A stretch of DNA of 42,713 bases, taken from the IMG/VR virus record IMGVR_UViG_3300045988_116821, one strand, 5' to 3'. Position numbers and translations under genes: made by a program. The notes under the pieces were generated by a model. The model was not told where the DNA came from, did no database searches, and saw only the letters and a program-made list of their open reading frames with translations. Of this stretch, positions 1-42,713 are shown one piece after another (positions within the stretch are counted from its first letter, which is position 1; every line of letters starts with the position of its first letter). The stretch is from a virus.

Positions 1-55
1 GTAACGGAGCCGCGCTGGTATCCAGCCTCACGGTCATAGTCGCCCATTCCCTGAA
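1..55. repeat. 55-bp exact terminal duplication, identical to 42659..42713 (circular closure overlap)
   Basis: Direct comparison of window start and end; every base identical. Confidence 0.95.
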
Positions 56-206
56 CGCTCATTTTCGGGATCTTTACTTCAGATCCACCGTTATAGATCA
101 CCTGGCCGGCATTGGCATCCATCCAGCCGGTGGTTGCTTCCTGAACAGCGATCTTATCAAGCTGTGTCATAAATAAGGTTGCTGTTGCTAAAGTATTGAT
201 TGCCAT
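1..206 (-). CDS. Major capsid protein, N-terminal part; the gene wraps the circular junction and continues in 41932..42658
   Basis: ATG at 206 with SD AAAGGAGAG; frame runs off position 1 and is in frame with ORF 41932..42705 through the 55-bp overlap (206-47=159 nt); combined 310 aa; lies directly after the scaffold gene. Confidence 0.85.
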   Translation of the reverse strand, partial: MAINTLATATLFMTQLDKIAVQEATTGWMDANAGQVIYNGGSEVKIPKMSVQGMGDYDREAGYQRGSV

Positions 207-223
207 TGTTTATTCACTCTCCT

Positions 224-856
224 TTAAAAAATACCCATCATCGCATTGTATACCTGCTTTTCAAGGGCTTCCTGTGTGTTTGTTTCTGGTGCTTTTTTCG
301 GAGGCTTGCCGCCTTTCAGCTTCTCATCGACTGCTTTCTCAACTGCAGTCTGGAACGCTTTTTTGACGGTTTCCATGGATTTCTTGCAGGCATCTGCATC
401 TGTATAATTCAGTACTTCTGCAAGCTCTACCGGAAGTCCTTCGTCTGACAGGTTGTTCTTTGCTTCTGCCATGAGCTCACTTCTGGTTACTGCTGCCTCC
501 CTGTCGGAAAGTTCCTTTTCTTTTTTATTCTGCATGTACTGCGCTTTTTCTTCCTTGGTCATCTTGGCCAGCTTCTCAGCTTCGGAAAGCTTATCATCCG
601 TCAGTGCCTGCCACTTCTCCTGTGCGTTTGTCACTGCCGTATTGACTGCCTTCTGGACACGTCTGTCAAATTCTGCCTGATTACTGCCTGTTTTCAGGAA
701 GTCATCAAAAGATGGAGGATTATCTCCTTCGCCGCCCGTACCTTCTCCGGATCCGCCGCCATTGCCCTCACCGGCCCCAGCACCGTCTCCGCCTTCTGCG
801 AATAACTGCAGGTTCATTGGAACTTTACACATTGCTTTGAATACTCTGTTTCTCAT
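224..856 (-). CDS. Capsid scaffolding protein
   Basis: MNLQLFAEGG motif near the N-terminus, Gly-rich linker, charged coiled-coil body; immediately upstream of the capsid gene. Start could be 856 or the internal ATG at 817. Confidence 0.85.
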   Translation of the reverse strand: MRNRVFKAMCKVPMNLQLFAEGGDGAGAGEGNGGGSGEGTGGEGDNPPSFDDFLKTGSNQAEFDRRVQKAVNTAVTNAQEKWQALTDDKLSEAEKLAKMTKEEKAQYMQNKKEKELSDREAAVTRSELMAEAKNNLSDEGLPVELAEVLNYTDADACKKSMETVKKAFQTAVEKAVDEKLKGGKPPKKAPETNTQEALEKQVYNAMMGIF

Positions 857-944
857 ATCTTTTCCTTTCTGCCCAGCCTATTCGTTCTCACGCCCGGGCC
901 ATTCAGTTTTTGGAATCTGCTTCTTTAACGCCTAGCGGAAAAAG

Positions 945-976
945 GCATAAAAAATAAGACGCTTCACCCTGCGTCT
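945..976 (-). terminator. Intrinsic terminator after the 54-aa gene
   Basis: Minus strand AGACGC-AGGGTGAA-GCGTCT followed by TATTTTTTAT. Confidence 0.7.
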
Positions 977-998
977 CACCGGGAGATAATTGGATTAC

Positions 999-1163
999 CT
1001 ATTCCTTCCCTTTGGCTGCTGCCTTTGCTTCTCTTACTGCCTCTGCAACACCCTCGCCGATCAGATGTTCCCCTCTGTTTTCTGTTACTTCCAGAACAGT
1101 TCCCTTCTCGACGATTTCTTTCAAGCAGATGTCGCTGTATCTTTTGATGCATTTTACTTTCAT
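999..1163 (-). CDS. Hypothetical small protein (54 aa)
   Basis: ATG 1163 with SD GGAGGGGAGGTG; the longer track ORF starts upstream inside a palindrome. Confidence 0.6.
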   Translation of the reverse strand: MKVKCIKRYSDICLKEIVEKGTVLEVTENRGEHLIGEGVAEAVREAKAAAKGKE

Positions 1164-1182
1164 TCTCTTCACCTCCCCTCCG

Positions 1183-1198
1183 TTGCGCCGGCGCAATT
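1183..1198. repeat. GC-rich palindrome copy A (TTGCGCCGGCGCAA, shared 16-mer TTGCGCCGGCGCAATT)
   Basis: Same 16-mer at 28110..28125; lies between the stop of gene 1197..1460 and the SD of gene 999..1163. Confidence 0.9.
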
Positions 1199-1460
1199 AC
1201 AGTTTAAAGCACATGTTCTGAAACTTCTTATAAGCATCAAGGTATAACTCGTGCTTATCTCCGTTATATGTCAGCTCATAATACATTCCATCCGGCACAG
1301 TCGTGCTCAGAAGTGCTTTACTGTTCTGTAATGTCTTACAACTCCATACCACGTACACATCCTGTACTGTGATCTGCTTTCCATCGGTCTTATCCATATG
1401 GGAGTTTGTATATTCAGCTACTTTCGCCTTACAAAGCCTTAAAAATTCTTCGTTTTTCAT
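1197..1460 (-). CDS. Hypothetical protein (87 aa)
   Basis: Compact ORF tightly packed between neighbours; no motif recognised. Confidence 0.65.
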   Translation of the reverse strand: MKNEEFLRLCKAKVAEYTNSHMDKTDGKQITVQDVYVVWSCKTLQNSKALLSTTVPDGMYYELTYNGDKHELYLDAYKKFQNMCFKL

Positions 1461-1463
1461 TCT

Positions 1464-1961
1464 CTACTCCTCCGCAAAAATCCAGTCTTCCGCAAGCATA
1501 TCTGCCTGAGATGCAAGCCATCCCATCTGCACACCAGATGTTCCTACAAAAGCCACTGCCATGTTGCCAATAGCATTGTGCTCACAGTTTACAACTTCGC
1601 CATCTGCTGCCTTATAAGAAATCCCAGTTGCAAGCTGAATGTACTGTTTTTTACCATTCCATCCTTTACGAGCTACTTTGGACCCTCTTTTCAGGTACTT
1701 GATAGCTTCCCCGAAAGAAAATGTTGCTTCTCCGCCCAACTGCGGACAGTTTACTTCATCTGCAATGATCCATTCATCAGAAAGAATATTCTGAAGCGTA
1801 TATACAACGCTCTGGGTTTCCCGGATATCCAGTTCCTGTCCATCTTTTGTGTGCATGATGATTGTTTCTTTCTCTGGACTCCAATACCAATATCCTCCCC
1901 AGGACGGTAATTTTGCTTTACTTCCTGCTTTCATTGCCTTTAATGCTTCTTCAAACTTCAT
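1464..1961 (-). CDS. Tandem DUF2829-like protein (Tad2-like candidate)
   Basis: ATG 1961 with SD AGAGAGG. Two DUF2829-type halves: MKFEEALKAMKAGSK...ILSDEWII and FSFGEAIKYLKRGSKVARKGWNGKKQYIQL...QADMLAEDWIF. Confidence 0.7.
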   Translation of the reverse strand: MKFEEALKAMKAGSKAKLPSWGGYWYWSPEKETIIMHTKDGQELDIRETQSVVYTLQNILSDEWIIADEVNCPQLGGEATFSFGEAIKYLKRGSKVARKGWNGKKQYIQLATGISYKAADGEVVNCEHNAIGNMAVAFVGTSGVQMGWLASQADMLAEDWIFAEE

Positions 1962-2025
1962 TTCTGATCCTCTCTTTCTTAAAAATGGGTATAAAAAGAC
2001 CACCGGCCATTTCTGACTGGTGGTA

Positions 2026-2283
2026 TCAGTTGGTCTGATAATAAATATCATCCCTTATTGATTCAAGCATATATGTTTTCGCTGATGGCTCATAATTTGC
2101 GTCCATCCAATATACCGACTCATCTTCCACAAAAAGCATAAAATCAATTTTGGTATCCACATCTACTTCAAATACTCCATTATTTTCACAATTCAGTACT
2201 CTCTGAACCAGCTCATTGTCAGGATACATTTCTTTAAGAAATTCGATCTGCTCTTTTTTTAGTTCAAATCTTCGCATTTCCAT
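2026..2283 (-). CDS. Small acidic protein overlapping the MuF 3' end (candidate immunity/partner protein)
   Basis: 85-aa ORF; 20-nt overlap with the stop region of the MuF gene; D/E-rich. Confidence 0.6.
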   Translation of the reverse strand: MEMRRFELKKEQIEFLKEMYPDNELVQRVLNCENNGVFEVDVDTKIDFMLFVEDESVYWMDANYEPSAKTYMLESIRDDIYYQTN

Positions 2284-3856
2284 TTGCTATTCTCCTTACA
2301 TAGTCTGCATCTGTTGGATTGCATTGAATCAGAATCCCCGTCTCAGGATCTAATGAGACTGTTCCATGTCTGCCAATATATTTCTGGCTTTTTCTTGAAT
2401 CAGGATCCGTTCTCGTAGGAAATACTTTCGCCGGATTCTCCAGCGCATCCCGTATTCCTTCCACGGTAACTCCTGATCGTGATCTTCCCGTTTTTGGATC
2501 TTTCATGGTTCCGATTACTCTGTCCATGAAATGTTTACTCTGTCTGGTTACTGCTGTTCCCTCAGAAGTCTTTATACCAACAACTTTTTCATTGATTTCA
2601 TCATAAATCTTCTGATAATTCTCGAATCCAGATAACGGAGATATCGTGCCTTTATCTACAGAACGTGCATAAGTCCTGAGCAGTTCCCACTTCTCAGGTT
2701 CATTATACTTCATTTCCTGGAAGTCTGCAAAATGTTTCGGCATGTCTTTTCCAAGAAGTTCCCGATACCGCTCATACTGCTTCCGGTCTGACGAAGCGTT
2801 CTTGACTGCTTTCTCCTGGGCTTCTGCTTTTAGATTTCCTTTGACGTATTTCTCATACCACTGTTCATAGGTCATATCCGCAGGAACCATCTCTGTACGC
2901 CCTGTTTCCGGGTTGTAAGCACTTCTTTTCATGTTCCTGAGGATTTTATCATCTATGACAGAAATCGTTGTAGAGCGGCAATATGGATGCATGGGAGGAT
3001 AGTTCACTCCGGCTTTCCGGTCTTTCACCGAAAAAACCTTTCCATCCAGTTCCCGACAGATCTCACTGGTACGAAGATCCAGCACTGCCACATAGCGATA
3101 ATTCTTGATCCCGCAGTCAATATAACTCTGTGCAGTCAATTCTCCTGCCATGTAACAGGATTCTGTTCTTACCAATCGCCTGGCCTGCTTTGCTCCCCCT
3201 CCGCACTGGGCCTGGATGGATTCCGCTGTTTCCCGGTCTGTCCGGCCGGTAAGGAGGCTGATCAGCAATTCATCCTTCAAGGAATCTGCAAGCTGCTGTG
3301 TGTTCTGCCAGATACGGTCTGAAAAATGTTTTCCGGACCATTTCATCTGCAGAGCCTGGTCGATCTGTTTCCTGCTTACATGAGAAAAACTGAATGCCAG
3401 GCCGGTTTCTTTCTGCATATTGTAGATGGAATGATAATAGGCTTTTTCTCCAAGCTGTTCCAGAAGTCTGGTATCGAACTGCTTCTCCTGCTGATATACC
3501 TGCTGCATCACTGCATCTACCTGTGTCATAAGATCCTGCAGGCGTTCCATTCTTGCACGGTACGCCGGAGCTTCCAGTTGTTTCAGAATCTCACTGTCCT
3601 TTTTCCTGTTCTGGAGTTCCTGTTTCAGCTGATCAATGGAGTTTTTATCCTGTATGGAATTTATAATCTGCCAGGCTTCTGTTTCTGACAGACCATATTT
3701 TGTCATGAACTTCTCAAAGATATCTCTTGCGGCATATTCCAGCTGGAGAGAGGCTTTCCGGTATACTCTGGCAATGAGATCTGCTGTCTCTTCTGCATCC
3801 TCCATAAACTGATACATATCCCAGGCAGATCTCTGCTCCCAGTATTTCCTACTCAT
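2264..3856 (-). CDS. Head morphogenesis protein, MuF / SPP1 gp7 family, with a ~230-aa C-terminal extension
   Basis: RTSEICRELDGKVF...NYPPMHPYCRSTT motif at aa 262-296; follows the portal gene; 530 aa total. Confidence 0.85.
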   Translation of the reverse strand: MSRKYWEQRSAWDMYQFMEDAEETADLIARVYRKASLQLEYAARDIFEKFMTKYGLSETEAWQIINSIQDKNSIDQLKQELQNRKKDSEILKQLEAPAYRARMERLQDLMTQVDAVMQQVYQQEKQFDTRLLEQLGEKAYYHSIYNMQKETGLAFSFSHVSRKQIDQALQMKWSGKHFSDRIWQNTQQLADSLKDELLISLLTGRTDRETAESIQAQCGGGAKQARRLVRTESCYMAGELTAQSYIDCGIKNYRYVAVLDLRTSEICRELDGKVFSVKDRKAGVNYPPMHPYCRSTTISVIDDKILRNMKRSAYNPETGRTEMVPADMTYEQWYEKYVKGNLKAEAQEKAVKNASSDRKQYERYRELLGKDMPKHFADFQEMKYNEPEKWELLRTYARSVDKGTISPLSGFENYQKIYDEINEKVVGIKTSEGTAVTRQSKHFMDRVIGTMKDPKTGRSRSGVTVEGIRDALENPAKVFPTRTDPDSRKSQKYIGRHGTVSLDPETGILIQCNPTDADYVRRIANGNAKI

Positions 3857-5315
3857 CTACTTTTTCCTTATCATCGGAATCCTGCTCCGGTGGCGTATTG
3901 TCCTGCAGTCCAAAGACTTCCCGCTGCCGCTTCAGATTCTCTTCTTCCTCTGTTTCCAGGGCTTTCAGTTCCTCATCCACATCATCCACAAACGGGACCT
4001 GGGAAAGCAAGGTCTTACGGCTTACCTTTCCCCACAGATTTGCCACGATCTGGGATATCTCTAGGAGATTTTTCGGCAATGCTCTGGTAAACGTCATCGT
4101 GATCCCGGATGGATCGATGCTGATCCCATGCAAAGCCAGATAGTTACAGAATATCCGAACTCGTTTTCTCAGACCTTTTTTATAATATCTGGTCTTAATC
4201 TTTGTGATGTTTTCCATGCCCAGGAGCTTAAATTCCATAGCCACACCACTGACGTTCCCTCCGAAGCTTTCATCTGACATACAGGGAATGTGGGAAAACT
4301 TATGGATATCCTGCTCAATGGCTTTCTTAAGAATCTCCACACCGCTTTCATCAAAAGTCCTGGTCAGATATTCTGCTTTGGCTGTGTCCGGCATCTCAAG
4401 AACCTTGTACTTTTTAAGACGGGCTTTGGCCTTTCGGATGCTCTCGTCTCCATCCTCAGTGTTCGGTTCGTCCTCATCGGTCAGCAATGTTCCATAGATG
4501 GCCAGGATCGCATCAATAAACTGCTCCTTATCGGTCACACGATCGCTCATCAGCGCATTGTATGCATCGATCAGTGGGATCTGCAGTTCAAAATCTCCGA
4601 TGGCCAGTTTATTGTTCAGGTATTCAATGATCGGGATCTCACCAAGATAATGGGGCACCGCCGGCTCTGTGGTTGCCTGGATCGTATTGCTGTTCTCAAT
4701 GTCCAGCTCGTACTTATAGTTTGTGGTCACTACTGTGGCCATATAGTGGTCCGGAAGCTTCTCAGAATCATCTTTCCGGATATAATAATAGACAGCAAAG
4801 AGTTCGTTTTCCTCTATGCTGTCGTCTTTTACCATGAAGGTATTCTCCGCAGACAGGTTCTTGGTCTGCAGATTATTCTCGTTTTCCTTCACATAGACAT
4901 ATTCATAGGCCAGGCCGTAGATGGATGCCTCCAGGCCGTTATCCCCGTCTGTCTCATCCGCTCCGGCCACCTCCAGTGCGTCTGTGAGGACCTTGATGTC
5001 TCCCTCTGATTTGTACGTCACCGGATTGCCGATGAAATAGCTGCTGGCTGTATCAGAGATGTCTTTTGCATGATTGCACACCAGGCGGTTTTCCCGTTTG
5101 GTTTCATCCAGGATCTTGTGCTTTCCTTCATAGTAGGACATATTCTTCTTCAGCCGATCCACCATGCTGATGTGTTTGCTGATCAGCTGGCGGAGTATCT
5201 GTTTGTCTGGGTTTAACTCGTCAAAGCTTTCTCTCGGTATTGTAAATGTGTATATTTTTCTCACCTCCTTATCTCTCGGAAACGTGCTGCTTTTCTGCCG
5301 ATTATGGTGCTGCAT
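3849..5315 (-). CDS. Portal protein
   Basis: 488-aa ORF directly downstream of terL, acidic C-terminus, SPP1 gp6-like size and position. Start uncertain (ATG 5315 overlaps the terL end by 54 nt). Confidence 0.85.
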   Translation of the reverse strand: MQHHNRQKSSTFPRDKEVRKIYTFTIPRESFDELNPDKQILRQLISKHISMVDRLKKNMSYYEGKHKILDETKRENRLVCNHAKDISDTASSYFIGNPVTYKSEGDIKVLTDALEVAGADETDGDNGLEASIYGLAYEYVYVKENENNLQTKNLSAENTFMVKDDSIEENELFAVYYYIRKDDSEKLPDHYMATVVTTNYKYELDIENSNTIQATTEPAVPHYLGEIPIIEYLNNKLAIGDFELQIPLIDAYNALMSDRVTDKEQFIDAILAIYGTLLTDEDEPNTEDGDESIRKAKARLKKYKVLEMPDTAKAEYLTRTFDESGVEILKKAIEQDIHKFSHIPCMSDESFGGNVSGVAMEFKLLGMENITKIKTRYYKKGLRKRVRIFCNYLALHGISIDPSGITMTFTRALPKNLLEISQIVANLWGKVSRKTLLSQVPFVDDVDEELKALETEEEENLKRQREVFGLQDNTPPEQDSDDKEKVDE

Positions 5316-6709
5316 AGGTACCTCACAGCGTCACAACAATGATCGAATTGTTTCACCGGTTTGTCTTCTCCTCTTTCCAGGGCTTTCTCATCCCAGATGT
5401 AAGAAGCAAATTCTTTTATGGTTTCTTTACAGGAAGAAGCAAAGACAATCTTCTCCAGGTTCAGAAGCATTCCAACCAGCCGGATTCCATCCAGAACATC
5501 ATTGTTGGCTTTCAGGACCTTATATCCCCGTTTCCGGAGTTCTGCAATAAAAGAAGCGGCCGATGGATCCACGATGATTGCTTTGATCTTGGTTCCATCC
5601 AGCCACACTTTCAGGTCATCTGCATATTCTGAATCTGTTTTCTGTTTACCTTTATCTCTTCCGGAATAGTAATACTCCCGGATGCAGTACCATTTCCCGT
5701 TGGTTCCTTTATTCCACAACAGGAATACTGTAGCGTTCTGTGTACCATAATCGCAGGAAACATACCGGTTCCCATTGATCAGCAGCTGATAGAAATCTTT
5801 GATATCCTGGACATGTTTGTTCTCGTCGAACATGTCGTAGATGATTCCCTCTGCTGCCGCCCAAAGCCCCATGATGTAACGTTTAAAGAATACTCCAACG
5901 TACATGCTCCTGTATCTGGCCTTGATCTCTTCATCCAGGGACAGGTTATCGTCCATAGTAAAGTGGAGATACAGGATATCTTTCAGACCAGGATCTTTCC
6001 CCTCCGCGGCCGCTTGCTGCATCCTCCGGGCAGTTTCTTCTTTTCCCAGATATCCGGTGGATTTATCTATCCAGTTCTGTTTAAACCAGTGATATGGACC
6101 ATCCGGATTGCAGTTAAACCAGAACTTTGAGCCTTTTACAGAGCATCGGCCTGTTGCCTGGTTCACAAAGGATTCCGGCATCAGGGCAACTTCGTCAAAG
6201 AACACTCCTGCCAAGGTAATTCCCTGGATAAGATCCTGAGATCTTTCATCCTTACCACCGAATATGTAGAAGTAGTTTTCTTTTCCGTCTTTTCGGATAG
6301 TTAGAAGGTTGTCTGCCCTGTGATCCGTGATGGAATATCCTCTTGACCGGAGCATCAGTTTCAACCAGAACAGAACATTTCTCCGGAAGGATCCTATGGT
6401 CTTTCCGCACATGGCAAAGTTCTGGCCAGTGAAGGTACTCATGGCCCACATAACGAATGATAAAGACATGCTGATTGTTTTTCCTGATCGAATTGCTCCA
6501 TCAGCGATAACTCCGTCCATATCGTGAACCGGGGATTCTTTGCACCACCAGGTCAGGACCTGTTTCTGTTTTCTTGAGAACGGAGAAAAATGAAACGTCT
6601 GGCCTATCTGCCTGTTGGCTCTGTTGGTTTTCATCTTCTGCAGCTTATCTTTCAGAGTTTTGAGTTTTTCATACATTCTCGTCACCCCAGACATCCTGCG
6701 CTGTTGCAT
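5261..6709 (-). CDS. terL: Terminase large subunit (PBSX/Terminase_3-like, headful type)
   Basis: Walker A GAIRSGKT, 482 aa, between terS and portal. Confidence 0.9.
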   Translation of the reverse strand: MQQRRMSGVTRMYEKLKTLKDKLQKMKTNRANRQIGQTFHFSPFSRKQKQVLTWWCKESPVHDMDGVIADGAIRSGKTISMSLSFVMWAMSTFTGQNFAMCGKTIGSFRRNVLFWLKLMLRSRGYSITDHRADNLLTIRKDGKENYFYIFGGKDERSQDLIQGITLAGVFFDEVALMPESFVNQATGRCSVKGSKFWFNCNPDGPYHWFKQNWIDKSTGYLGKEETARRMQQAAAEGKDPGLKDILYLHFTMDDNLSLDEEIKARYRSMYVGVFFKRYIMGLWAAAEGIIYDMFDENKHVQDIKDFYQLLINGNRYVSCDYGTQNATVFLLWNKGTNGKWYCIREYYYSGRDKGKQKTDSEYADDLKVWLDGTKIKAIIVDPSAASFIAELRKRGYKVLKANNDVLDGIRLVGMLLNLEKIVFASSCKETIKEFASYIWDEKALERGEDKPVKQFDHCCDAVRYLCSTIIGRKAARFREIRR

Positions 6710-7442
6710 TCATTGCCTCCAGGAAACCATCATCGGTAGTCTCTTCTGCCTGGTTATCCTGCTTCAGCATCTCAAATTCAAGCTGCATGGTTGCAAGTTC
6801 CAGTTTTGCATCGTCATAACCAAACTTATGCAGCATCTCGATTGCTTTCTGCTGCCGGGCCTGCACTCTAGTCAGAGCATCCTCTATAGCCTGGATCTGG
6901 CCAAGAATGCCTTCGTACTTTCGAAGTTCTGTTTGTTTTCCTTTTTCAATACCGGAAGCATATTCCGTTACAGACATTCCGCATGGTACCGAATCTTCTT
7001 CAGATCCGGTCTGAACCTCCAGTTCACGGAGAGACTGGATTCTTTTCAGCATCCGGCGTTCTCTGACTGCAAGAAGTTGGATTTCTCTGAGAAGCAGCTG
7101 CTCTTTGTTCGGCTGGATCATCTCTGCCAATGTTCTTTCTTCCGGTTCCAGGGTATCAAAAAAGAGAGTTTCAAACTCTCCTGTCCTGACTGCATTCTTA
7201 TTTCCCGGCGGACCGGTTCCTCCATGCCCCTCCGCATTTTTATTTCCGGGCTGTCCGCCCTTCTTTTTCGCAACGTTGCGTTTATTCTTTTGCAACGTTG
7301 CATCATCCCATTTATATCTATTTTTCCAGCTTCGGATTGTCCCCTCCGGGATTCCGAGCTTCTGAGAAACTTCAATTAATTTCGCTCCAGAAGCATATAT
7401 CTTTCTGGCCTCTTCAATTCTCTGATCTGGTGCTCTTGGCAA
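6669..7442 (-). CDS. terS: Terminase small subunit
   Basis: TTG start with SD GGTGGTGAGG; N-terminal HTH (IEVSQKLGIPEGTIRSWKNRYKWD); repeated GxPGNKNA motif. Confidence 0.8.
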   Translation of the reverse strand: MPRAPDQRIEEARKIYASGAKLIEVSQKLGIPEGTIRSWKNRYKWDDATLQKNKRNVAKKKGGQPGNKNAEGHGGTGPPGNKNAVRTGEFETLFFDTLEPEERTLAEMIQPNKEQLLLREIQLLAVRERRMLKRIQSLRELEVQTGSEEDSVPCGMSVTEYASGIEKGKQTELRKYEGILGQIQAIEDALTRVQARQQKAIEMLHKFGYDDAKLELATMQLEFEMLKQDNQAEETTDDGFLEAMNATAQDVWGDENV

Positions 7443-7623
7443 GCCTCACCACCTCTCATTCGTTTCGTTTTTTATATTTGTAAATTACAGTCCTGCCGGC
7501 ACCATAGTGACAGCCGATTGCTGCCACGCCGAAAGGAGGTGCGCAAACACTTACATACAGTGAATCCATGCGTAAGGTATGTATGTGCTGGTGCCGTGCA
7601 CGCTGTAGGAAAAATTGCATTAG

Positions 7624-7649
7624 AAAAGCACCCCGTAGGGTGCCTTTTT
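7624..7649. terminator. Bidirectional intrinsic terminator
   Basis: AAAA-GCACCC-CGTA-GGGTGC-CTTTTT; ends the 7663..9381 minus-strand unit. Confidence 0.75.
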
Positions 7650-7662
7650 GTATGCATCGTCT

Positions 7663-7896
7663 TTACACACTTAACAACGCTTTTCCTTTTTGCGTCAATT
7701 CAGCTGTTTTTAAAGAAACAACTTCCGGTTCTTGTGTATTTTTGTAATAAAAAACCGTTGCGCCAACAATGAGTCCATCTTTTTGCAATTCGGCTACTGC
7801 AATTTTGTATTTCCCATATATATTATTATATTTGTTATCAACTGCGCTTCCGTCCATCTCATTTAAATCCTTTAAAATCTGTTCTTTTAAATTCAT
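7663..7896 (-). CDS. YjcQ-like winged-helix protein (77 aa)
   Basis: ATG 7896 with SD AGGAGA; ...AELQKDGLIVGATVFYYK...AELTQKGKALL resembles the YjcQ/DUF2513 type. Confidence 0.55.
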   Translation of the reverse strand: MNLKEQILKDLNEMDGSAVDNKYNNIYGKYKIAVAELQKDGLIVGATVFYYKNTQEPEVVSLKTAELTQKGKALLSV

Positions 7897-7921
7897 AAAC
7901 CTATCTCCTATCACATAATAT

Positions 7922-8041
7922 CTAATTTGGTGTTGATCGTCTATGTTCTCTGACTTTTACACCATCACTTCGTGTATATGGTTTTACAACCACGATCTTT
8001 TTATTCTGAGTTCCTCTAACACTGGATTTTGTCTTAGCCAT
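7922..8041 (-). CDS. Micro-ORF, 39-aa basic peptide (MAKTKSSVRGTQNKKIVVVKPYTRSDGVKVREHRRSTPN)
   Basis: Found by hand, below the track cutoff; weak SD (AGGTAG); shares a TR(S/K)DG(V/T)K motif with the next micro-ORF. Confidence 0.4.
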   Translation of the reverse strand: MAKTKSSVRGTQNKKIVVVKPYTRSDGVKVREHRRSTPN

Positions 8042-41016: not shown

Positions 41017-41387
41017 ATCTTTTCCACCTCTATGGTAAGGAAACGATATGGTTTGATGGATATGATCCGATAGTCTGGAAGCTGATCTGCTGCCACATAT
41101 AGACAAATCCCGTCCCGTTCCTCTATATCCGTTCCATCTTCCAGGATATAATGCAGCCGGCTTTTTCCATCCGTCTGGATCTTATAGTTTCCCTGTATCC
41201 GGATATTCCGGATATAATTCAGTTTCTGGCCGTACTGCTCAACCTGTACTTCTCCAGATGCCGGCCAGCTTTCTCCGGTAACAGAAGAGGCAGCACCATA
41301 TTCCTCGCTGGTACTGCCTTCTTTATCTTTCTTTACCGTCATTTTCTTATGGAAAAATTCCTCAAGTCTGCTTCTTCTCAGCCTCAT
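41013..41387 (-). CDS. Head closure / head-tail adaptor protein
   Basis: Position. Start uncertain (41387 or ATG 41342). Confidence 0.55.
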   Translation of the reverse strand: MRLRRSRLEEFFHKKMTVKKDKEGSTSEEYGAASSVTGESWPASGEVQVEQYGQKLNYIRNIRIQGNYKIQTDGKSRLHYILEDGTDIEERDGICLYVAADQLPDYRIISIKPYRFLTIEVEKI

Positions 41388-41691
41388 AAGTCTTTCCTCC
41401 TACTCTGGCCAGGCGATACCGGTTCAGCGTGTCGTAGATCTGTTTCGGCGCATCCTCAAAAGTATAACTCTCTCCACCCTCACTTCTGGACTTTTCCCCC
41501 TCTGTTCCCATCCGGTTCAAAGCGATCACAGCAAGATCCCGGACTGCCTTTTCCAGCCCGGTCCTTAACTGTTTGCGATTGGTGTAGGACAGCACGAAAG
41601 CTTCAGCTTCATCCAGAAGGACAGACAGAAGTTCCTCATTCTTTTCTCCGGTCAGGATCTTCAGCTTTTTGATATCTTCTGCTGATGCCAT
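41362..41691 (-). CDS. gp6-like head-tail connector protein
   Basis: N-terminus ...LKILTGEKNEELLSVLLDEAEAFVLSYTNRK typical of this family. Confidence 0.65.
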   Translation of the reverse strand: MASAEDIKKLKILTGEKNEELLSVLLDEAEAFVLSYTNRKQLRTGLEKAVRDLAVIALNRMGTEGEKSRSEGGESYTFEDAPKQIYDTLNRYRLARVGGKTYEAEKKQT

Positions 41692-41695
41692 CGTA

Positions 41696-41935
41696 TCACC
41701 CTTTCAGGATTGCCAGAAGGTCCGCTTTTGCCAGGGAGGAGACACCGGTCAGTCCTTTCTCCTTTGCAAGAGTTTTCAGTTCTTCAACTGTCATATCCTC
41801 GATGTCCTTACCGATTTTCTCTTCCGGTACTGTGTCTGGTGTGGCTTTTTTCATCGGTGTGAAGCCATCACTGATCAGCTTTTCTGCTGCAGATCCTTCC
41901 GCTTCTCTTTCTACATTTTTACGGATCAGCCTCAT
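41696..41935 (-). CDS. Rho-N/SAP-like small protein
   Basis: MTVEELKTLAKEKGLTGVSSLAKADLLAIL motif. Confidence 0.6.
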   Translation of the reverse strand: MRLIRKNVEREAEGSAAEKLISDGFTPMKKATPDTVPEEKIGKDIEDMTVEELKTLAKEKGLTGVSSLAKADLLAILKG

Positions 41936-42713
41936 GCTTTCGCCTCCTGGATGCTCAGATAGATGGAATCCAGTTTATTATCCAGAATCCACATATCATG
42001 GAAACGGCGGTAATCCATCTGCCATGCGTTCAATTTCTGGTTTGTTGTCGGGTCGAAGATACGCATGATATCCTGTTTTGTGACAGCGATTGGCGTGGTT
42101 ACAGGGCAGATGAAAAAGTTCAGGTTCTTTGCAGATGTTCCTTTTTCATATCCGCCTTTTTCCTGGCCACTATCTTTACCGTTATTGATCTTGATAGCTG
42201 TGTACATACGGTTGGAAGGTGTGGAAACCAGCGGTACACCATCTACAGAAGGAACCTGTGTCTGAATTCCGCCTTTAGAGAAGGTCACTGCAGTGATCTT
42301 GCCCGCAAGTTCCAGTTCCAGCTCCATAATAAAGTCCGGTGTTGCCTGGCAGATAAGAGCTCCGTTATAGTTTTCTCTTACCGCTTTGATCCCTTCTTTC
42401 AGCTTACGCAGAGCAGATGTAGAAGCAGTTCCCGGTACATAAGATTCTCCGATCATTCCTGCTTTATCTGCAGTAAGTGTTTCTGTGGCCAGCTTGCTGA
42501 TACGGTACGCATCGATCTCCGGAACTACCTGTGTCCTCTGGAACTCTCCCATAACTGCACCGGCAGTCGGGATAAAGTTTGCCTCGTTGATATCCATCGG
42601 ATCCAGCTGGAAGAGACGGCCACGGTCCTGTGTCATTTTTCTGGTCTCGTACTCCAGGGTAACGGAGCCGCGCTGGTATCCAGCCTCACGGTCATAGTCG
42701 CCCATTCCCTGAA
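41932..42713 (-). CDS. Major capsid protein, C-terminal part (continues from 1..206 across the circular junction)
   Basis: In frame with 1..206 through the overlap; stop at 41932. Confidence 0.85.
   Translation of the reverse strand, partial: QGMGDYDREAGYQRGSVTLEYETRKMTQDRGRLFQLDPMDINEANFIPTAGAVMGEFQRTQVVPEIDAYRISKLATETLTADKAGMIGESYVPGTASTSALRKLKEGIKAVRENYNGALICQATPDFIMELELELAGKITAVTFSKGGIQTQVPSVDGVPLVSTPSNRMYTAIKINNGKDSGQEKGGYEKGTSAKNLNFFICPVTTPIAVTKQDIMRIFDPTTNQKLNAWQMDYRRFHDMWILDNKLDSIYLSIQEAKA
42659..42713. repeat. 55-bp terminal duplication, second copy
   Basis: Identical to 1..55. Confidence 0.95.

Follow-up and report, generated by a model that had tools for sequence, protein, structure and literature searches.

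Tad2x2, a two-domain Tad2-like protein from an accessory slot of a phage head module, is a probable immune-signal sponge

The locus and its genes

The window analysed here is a 42,713-nucleotide stretch of viral DNA (IMG/VR record IMGVR_UViG_3300045988_116821). It carries a phage head module, and four small genes lie between the MuF and scaffold genes of that module. One of the four encodes a 165-aa protein with two Tad2-like domains, here called Tad2x2. This gene and all of its neighbours share the minus strand. The features are as follows, in the order in which they are read.

6669..7442, minus strand: small terminase
5261..6709, minus strand: large terminase
3849..5315, minus strand: SPP1-type portal
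2264..3856, minus strand: MuF/gp7-type minor head protein
2026..2283, minus strand: 85-aa ORF
2066..2038, minus strand: promoter-like pair (TTGAAT, 17 nt, TATTAT) upstream of the Tad2x2 start; weak, a consensus match only
1969..1974, minus strand: putative ribosome-binding site GAGAGG, read from the sequence, 7 nt ahead of the ATG at 1961
1464..1961, minus strand: Tad2x2 coding sequence, stop codon included; two-domain Tad2-like protein of 165 aa
1752..1961, minus strand: N-domain, aa 1-70, a 'mini-DUF2829' (N-type) with a predicted compact, divergent Tad2 fold
1722..1751, minus strand: linker, aa 71-80, with a conserved N-C-P-x-L-G-G motif
1467..1721, minus strand: C-domain, aa 81-165, canonical Tad2-like, with the contact set W101, N102, G103, W148, S151 and D154
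1197..1460, minus strand: DUF6275 gene, 87 aa (PF19791, 8.1e-38)
999..1196, minus strand: 54/65-aa ORF
953..980, minus strand: terminator-like hairpin with a T-run, between the 54/65-aa ORF and the scaffold gene; consensus scan only
224..856, minus strand: DUF4355 scaffold protein

Translation of 1464..1961 on the minus strand gives the same 165-aa protein that was quoted in the first-pass annotation of this DNA. The mechanical ORF reaches 2051. We place the true start at the ATG at 1961, because of the GAGAGG just upstream and because homologue lengths are mostly 164-168 aa (checked on the 120 closest homologues). For the 54/65-aa ORF, a GGAGG upstream and PHROG matches that begin at residue 12 indicate that the start is probably the ATG at 1163, which gives 54 aa.

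After the promoter-like pair, an imperfect hairpin (ACCACCAG...CCGGTGGT) with a T-run lies at about 2017..1985 (minus strand), again a consensus match only. The pair and the hairpin could give the cargo genes a transcription start of their own, or could attenuate them. The head module appears to cross the window ends, with a head-tail connector at 41362..41691 and an unassigned 257-aa ORF at 41932..42705, both on the minus strand, at one end and the scaffold gene (224..856) at the other. This suggests a circularly permuted contig of a whole phage or prophage. Another IMG/VR contig, UViG_3300029402_000006 (43,453 bp), has identical genes at its two ends.

The window very probably represents a prophage of Blautia, since Blautia fusiformis CLA-AA-H217 encodes Tad2x2 at 100% identity in the species-genome scan. 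A megablast of positions 1-8000 of the window against isolated phages gave no match. The PADLOC and NCBIfam libraries gave zero matches for the four small proteins.

Two diverged Tad2-like domains in one chain

The whole of Tad2x2 matches the Pfam family PF11195 (Tad2-like) at 90.2 bits (1.3e-25) in two stretches. Most of this score comes from the C-half (aa 76-165), which matches across the full profile (E 8.7e-21, 74.7 bits) and has sequence matches in the PDB to pdAcrIIA7 (9kzr), HgmTad2 (8kbi), SPO1 Tad2 (8sme), SptTad2 (8wjd) and ModTad2 (9eib). The N-half alone scores 21.8 bits, over profile positions 1-31 only. Against a gathering score of 25 bits, the C-half passes and the N-half falls under, so a sequence profile alone would leave the membership of the N-half open. 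Searching each half against this profile, as the first-pass annotation had proposed, settles the matter for one half and not for the other. The stand-alone N-type protein gp36 of Clostridium phage phiCT19406A (66 aa) passes the PF11195 cut-off by itself, at 31.1 bits.

Direct comparison of the halves links them. A BLASTP alignment of N-half with C-half spans both from end to end, with 22% identity and an E of 6e-5. Alignment of profiles with hhalign, built from 65 N-domain and 94 C-domain sequences, gives a probability of 96.7% and an E of 3.5e-10, with N 1-69 aligned to C 3-87. An N-domain profile searched against PDB sequences reached Tad2 below threshold only (E 0.07-1.1), so the assignment was settled by fold comparison. 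The AlphaFold2 model of the N-half alone has a pLDDT of 95.3 and a pTM of 0.82. Its nine top Foldseek matches in the PDB are all Tad2 crystal structures (TMq 0.68-0.73), and the next match after them stands at E 0.7 and TMq 0.39.

The full-length model, a single chain with pLDDT 89.8 and pTM 0.74, gave 24 significant Foldseek matches in the PDB, and all 24 are Tad2. In this model the order of helices and strands is the same in both halves, and the linker is well ordered (pLDDT 91-96). The predicted models contain the elements of the Tad2 fold, that is an N-terminal helix, an antiparallel beta-sheet, a C-terminal helix and a strand ending xEDW. A search of BFVD found no full-length structural counterpart (TMq at most 0.42). 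The likeness of the N and C folds is far above chance expectation. The original proposal that both halves are of DUF2829 type is therefore confirmed, by the Pfam score for the C-half and by BLASTP, hhalign and an exclusively Tad2 set of Foldseek matches for the N-half; within the reach of sequence comparison and predicted models, both belong to the Tad2/DUF2829 fold and superfamily.

The same annotation had called the protein a covalent duplication, and here the evidence points elsewhere. Stand-alone N-type proteins of 66-84 aa exist, among them gp24 of Ruminococcus phage RG-TP1 (55% identical), gp36 of phiCT19406A (43%) and the BFVD entry A0A8S5LV12 (rmsd 0.8 Å over 68 columns). The C-type likewise has a stand-alone relative, A0A8S5QUV8, at 64% identity. 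A recent tandem duplication was rejected on the 22% identity between the halves and on these stand-alone relatives. Since each half is closer to stand-alone proteins than to the other half, Tad2x2 is best read from its sequence as two DUF2829 subfamilies that diverged long ago and were later fused, and not as one domain duplicated in place.

Nor is the architecture unusual, as had been supposed. The family phrog_1048 covers residues 1-164 of Tad2x2 (4.7e-58), the exact sequence is found on at least 1000 public contigs, and relatives are encoded by 552 or more contigs of IMG/VR. In a scan limited to one genome per species, up to 92 matches were confirmed, in Clostridia. An exhaustive search of representatives of 50%-identity clusters found 83 clusters below 1e-30. 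In about half of the top 150 representatives, down to 42% identity, an N-type domain precedes a C-type domain or at least its beginning, and many of these N+C representatives are truncated proteins. Tad2x2 is among the commoner prophage accessory proteins of human-gut Lachnospiraceae. Of 50,697 records of isolated phages, two match over 80% or more of the query, a rarity that follows from how few Clostridia phages have been isolated.

One of those two is Dorea phage DO134P1. Its protein WAX12350.1 and the PHROG 1048 and Blautia proteins named 'DUF2829 domain-containing protein' share the two-domain architecture at 80-100% identity. They do not differ in kind from Tad2x2 and are unannotated members of the same family. 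The DO134P1 gene has a similar location, with the terminase genes and two large unannotated proteins upstream of it.

A variable slot between MuF and scaffold

Sister loci were anchored on the scaffold protein. Of 80 fetched, 70 carried both MuF and scaffold. The content of the interval between them is given below; the sister contigs are non-independent samples, and the counts are descriptive only.

Tad2x2 gene: 27 of 70 loci
DUF6275: 30 of 70 loci, 29 of them together with Tad2x2 or DUF4406
DUF4406: 21 of 70 loci, together with Tad2x2 once only
VG64-type lipoprotein: 18 of 70 loci
antirepressor-like proteins: 8 of 70 loci
Sequestin (PF21825)-domain protein: 5 of 70 loci
no cargo: 11 of 70 loci

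The phages with an empty slot are near-identical to the window (MuF 92-94%, scaffold 97-100%). In them, 631-633 nt separate the end of the MuF match from the scaffold gene wherever the full MuF was matched. In other Clostridia genomes the Tad2x2 gene lies in the lysis cassette, beside holins and endolysins, and its neighbours are highly variable. The lysis cassette is a classic moron slot. From the empty slots in near-identical sister phages and from the variable locations elsewhere, it follows that Tad2x2 is dispensable for virion assembly, and it accompanies counter-defence genes. Across the 70 syntenic loci the gene is polymorphic for presence and absence, with alternative anti-defence genes in its place, and the earlier description of dispensable cargo between MuF and scaffold holds.

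These data bear directly on whether Tad2x2 might be a virion or assembly protein (a decoration protein, a chaperone or a packaged protein) and not a signal sponge. Its position between MuF and scaffold, co-oriented and tightly spaced with late genes, would suit such a role, as would the small DUF2829 genes at the equivalent position in RG-TP1 and phiCT19406A. Sister phages whose MuF and scaffold are near-identical nevertheless do without it, with the slot empty or filled by unrelated cargo. In other Clostridia prophages it adjoins lysis genes, and its invariant residues include those of the pocket, not of the core alone. We consider a structural role very unlikely.

The company kept in the slot points to counter-defence. 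Sequestin is a validated 3'cADPR sponge (PMC12265669). In sister loci such as L241:3818-4267, L228:3531-4040, L231:3760-4269 and L245:3787-4317, a 149-176-aa Sequestin-domain protein (PF21825, 2.1e-18) occupies the interval. These slot proteins also have an N-terminal domain, 'YVGTKVIEA...GYLVKY.DGY.SWSP', with no match in Pfam. In P0239, P0243 and P0251 this domain is joined to Tad2 C-type domains.

The DUF6275 gene begins 3 nt past the Tad2x2 stop, and the two travel together. In the sister phages DUF6275 follows Tad2x2 or DUF4406 at 29 of its 30 loci. In species genomes no other family lies immediately next to Tad2x2 as often (16 of 78, within 700 bp on either side). A genuine DUF6275-Tad2 fusion also exists as a recurrent 179-aa protein (PF19791 plus PF11195), with 58 members in the P0226 cluster and P0271 on 55 contigs. 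Because it is fused to Tad2 ('guilt by fusion'), DUF6275 is a candidate counter-defence partner. The literature searched holds no mention of it.

DUF4406, like Tad2x2, has DUF6275 downstream of it in the slot, and may stand in functionally for the Tad2x2 gene. Examples of 100-108 aa (PF14359) lie at L187:4083-4385, L212:4355-4654, L246:4110-4436 and L210:1961-2281. In the wider set of species genomes DUF4406 neighbours Tad2x2 in 8 of 79 by direct BLASTP. A figure of 58 of 79, obtained by single-linkage clustering, was discarded as an artefact.

The interval had been described as an island of four small genes, and this stands for two of them. Tad2x2 and DUF6275 are cargo. The 54/65-aa ORF, present at 66 of 70 sister loci, belongs to the core of the head module and not to the cargo. 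The 85-aa ORF shares 20 nt with the end of the MuF gene and tracks the MuF C-terminus, as it occurs exactly where the MuF C-terminal module (about aa 395-530, about 2264..2670, minus strand) occurs. At one locus (L068) only this module matches, on a different MuF body, and the 85-aa ORF is present; at another (L036) MuF is 95% identical with another C-terminus, and the ORF is absent. Neither the 85-aa ORF nor the MuF C-terminal 179 aa matches Pfam. Polymorphic modules that have a cognate partner, such as those of MuF toxin/immunity pairs, show this kind of arrangement, although the toxin reading is unproven.

Pocket residues and proposed function

Both halves of Tad2x2 are under purifying selection. 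Across 129 distinct genes, the N-half has a dN/dS of 0.19, against 0.13 in the linker and 0.08 in the C-half. Among 20 diverse two-domain members (40-63% identity) it is the N-domain that is conserved more strongly. In the linker, N71 and L75 are at least 90% conserved among 20 diverse A1 members, and LGG is kept in the consensus.

The C-domain has the same predicted fold as SPO1 Tad2 (gp34.65; PDB 8SME/8SMF), the founding PF11195 member, with about 35% identity over 82 residues. In alignment, the main gcADPR contacts of SPO1 Tad2 (W25, N26, W73 and D79) fall on W101, N102, W148 and D154, and the further contacts S76 and T65 on S151 and T141. The HgmTad2 contacts W21, N22, G23, W87, L88, S90 and D93 are also kept, as W101, N102, G103, W148, L149, S151 and D154. 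W101, W148, S151 and D154 are conserved in at least 128 of the 129 genes, and N102 in 125. Three secondary SPO1 contacts are lost, with T78 replaced by A153, D67 by G143 and H71 by a gap; T92 of HgmTad2, the equivalent of T78, likewise becomes A153. The cyclic-dinucleotide pocket of HgmTad2 is not kept (R31 to A111, N85 to M146), and the beta2-beta5 insertion differs, leaving S47 and F70 without alignment.

While the gcADPR-contact set is present in the C-domain, the N-domain keeps only W21 and G23 of it. Its pocket equivalents are W21, retained, G22 in place of the Asn, T49, and N58 in place of the Asp. Y54 probably stands for the Tad2 Trp, the alignment being weaker there. K17, W21, G23, W25, T49, T55 and N58 are invariant in the 129 genes; R47 and Y24 are invariant residues as well. 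These invariant residues, the dN/dS of 0.19 and the stand-alone N-types in the same slot argue that the N-domain is functional. It appears to be not a dead copy but a domain whose pocket wall is conserved and rewritten.

We propose, with a probability of about 0.6, that Tad2x2 is a phage counter-defence sponge of the Tad2 family that carries two different Tad2-fold domains per chain. The predicted Tad2 fold, the retained pocket residues and the cargo slot shared with Sequestin make the anti-defence role put forward at the outset the best reading. In this mechanism the C-domain would supply the canonical pocket residues, which in SPO1 Tad2 and HgmTad2 clamp the TIR-made cyclic ADP-ribose of Thoeris. 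A dimer of two-domain chains would probably mimic the Tad2 homotetramer. With the signal sequestered, the host effector would never be switched on. The N-domain might form a second, asymmetric pocket wall, or carry separate pockets that accept a second signal. In the latter case Tad2x2 would be a two-specificity sponge, like the published Acb4-Tad2 fusions. We infer the oligomeric state, the ligand identity and the defence system that is blocked. Position speaks partly against a sponge, as Tad2x2 sits in a late head operon, which would be unusual timing; the weak promoter-like site lies upstream.

The geometry would differ from that of the founding member. Both are small phage accessory proteins. 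SPO1 Tad2 has one domain of 89 aa and assembles into a homotetramer whose two pockets are symmetric, whereas Tad2x2 adds a divergent Tad2-fold domain in front. Since the two domains are unlike, any pocket between them would be asymmetric. The characterised Tad2 ligands include 3'cADPR, His-ADPR, N7-cADPR, cyclic dinucleotides and cUMP/cCMP (PMC12393519). Because these ligands vary so widely and the solved relatives are only about 30-35% identical, the ligand of Tad2x2 is not readable from homology.

The N-domain could instead be a ligand-free scaffold for oligomerisation or solubility, with the C-domain alone working as a sponge. This sub-case of the sponge reading is unlikely in our view. The Asn and Asp that make polar contacts in Tad2 are missing (G22 and N58 stand there), and the domain's own Pfam score is sub-threshold, both as expected of an inert partner. 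Its most conserved residues, however, map to the Tad2 pocket wall (W21, T49, N58 and probably Y54), together with R47, Y24 and W25. N-types also stand alone in the same slot and so must act without a C-domain.

At the other extreme, the N-type mini-Tad2 may be a sponge module with its own pocket chemistry (the invariant K17, W21, W25, R47, T49, Y54 and N58). Fused to a canonical Tad2, it would create asymmetric hetero-pockets or a second pocket class, and one 165-aa protein that is abundant in Blautia prophages of the human gut would neutralise two signals, possibly one not yet described in Clostridia. DUF6275 and DUF4406 would then be further undescribed signal-binding counter-defence families. 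We advance this extension of the sponge reading tentatively, as a possibility with the odds against it.

A quite different activity is suggested by the best sequence match in the PDB. By E-value this is pdAcrIIA7 (9kzr, 1.1e-12), an anti-CRISPR, and on that model an oligomeric core with a positively charged groove would bind tracrRNA and block Cas9 loading. The pdAcrIIA7 residues K58, K66 and K71, whose mutation abolished RNA binding (PMC13133391), align to K91, K99 and K104 of Tad2x2. The equivalents of K58 and K71, however, belong to a generic LK-x-G...GWNGK motif that is also present in SPO1 Tad2, where the K66 position is Ser, and so have little discriminating value. K93 and R101 of pdAcrIIA7 fall in the insertion that differs in Tad2x2 and are not alignable. 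Activity of pdAcrIIA7 needs its N-terminal head to be absent (PMC13133391), whereas Tad2x2 always carries an 80-aa N-terminal domain, and by Foldseek that part is a Tad2 fold, not the two-helix head of AcrIIA7. For HgmTad2, an independent study did not see Cas9 inhibition (PMC10680739). We regard an AcrIIA7-type function as very unlikely.

HgmTad2/AcrIIA7 (PDB 8KBI-8KBM, 9KZR) is the best sequence match, and Tad2x2 keeps the gcADPR contacts named above and the three pdAcrIIA7 lysines. HgmTad2 and Tad2x2 both come from human gut sequence, the former from Bacteroides phages and the latter from Clostridia prophages. The front of the protein sets them apart, with a two-helix head in pdAcrIIA7 and a Tad2-fold domain in Tad2x2.

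Tad2 sponges are a main phage route past signalling immunity (Thoeris, CBASS and Pycsar), and their ligand range is still being mapped. For the sponge reading of Tad2x2, this gives the family its interest as a natural experiment in pocket engineering, with two diverged copies of one fold and one rewritten pocket. It bears on whether fusing two diverged Tad2 folds widens specificity, on which signals gut Clostridia use, and on whether 'guilt by fusion and by slot' can identify DUF6275 and DUF4406 as new families of counter-defence proteins. Should Tad2x2 bind only 3'cADPR, as SPO1 Tad2 does, it would be a conventional member of the family that has one additional domain.

Sponges of the Tad2 family are already known, as are fusions of one sponge to another. 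Tad2 frequently occurs joined to other sponges, in proteins that inhibit two systems (PMC12265669). Two of these, Acb4-Tad2 from Pasteurella phage Pm86 and Sequestin-Tad2 (PMC12265669), resemble Tad2x2 in joining Tad2 to a second small domain known to stand alone. In those fusions the partner is an unrelated sponge family, whereas Tad2x2 has a diverged Tad2 fold as partner, which makes its fusion homotypic yet heterologous. The largest Tad2 survey tested 18 Tad2 homologues (PMC12393519). In the literature searched, the supplementary tables of that survey aside, no tandem or two-domain fusion of diverged Tad2 folds is described.

Further multi-DUF2829 architectures turn up in the databases, including C+C (P0265 and P0170) and three-domain proteins such as N'+N+C. 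P0263 (481 aa) has an N-type domain followed by several further repeats, and P0139 (242 aa) and P0143 (228 aa) are also multi-DUF2829 proteins. These proteins are mostly database singletons, so some may be assembly or gene-calling artefacts. The C+C tandem P0265 has 3 cluster members.
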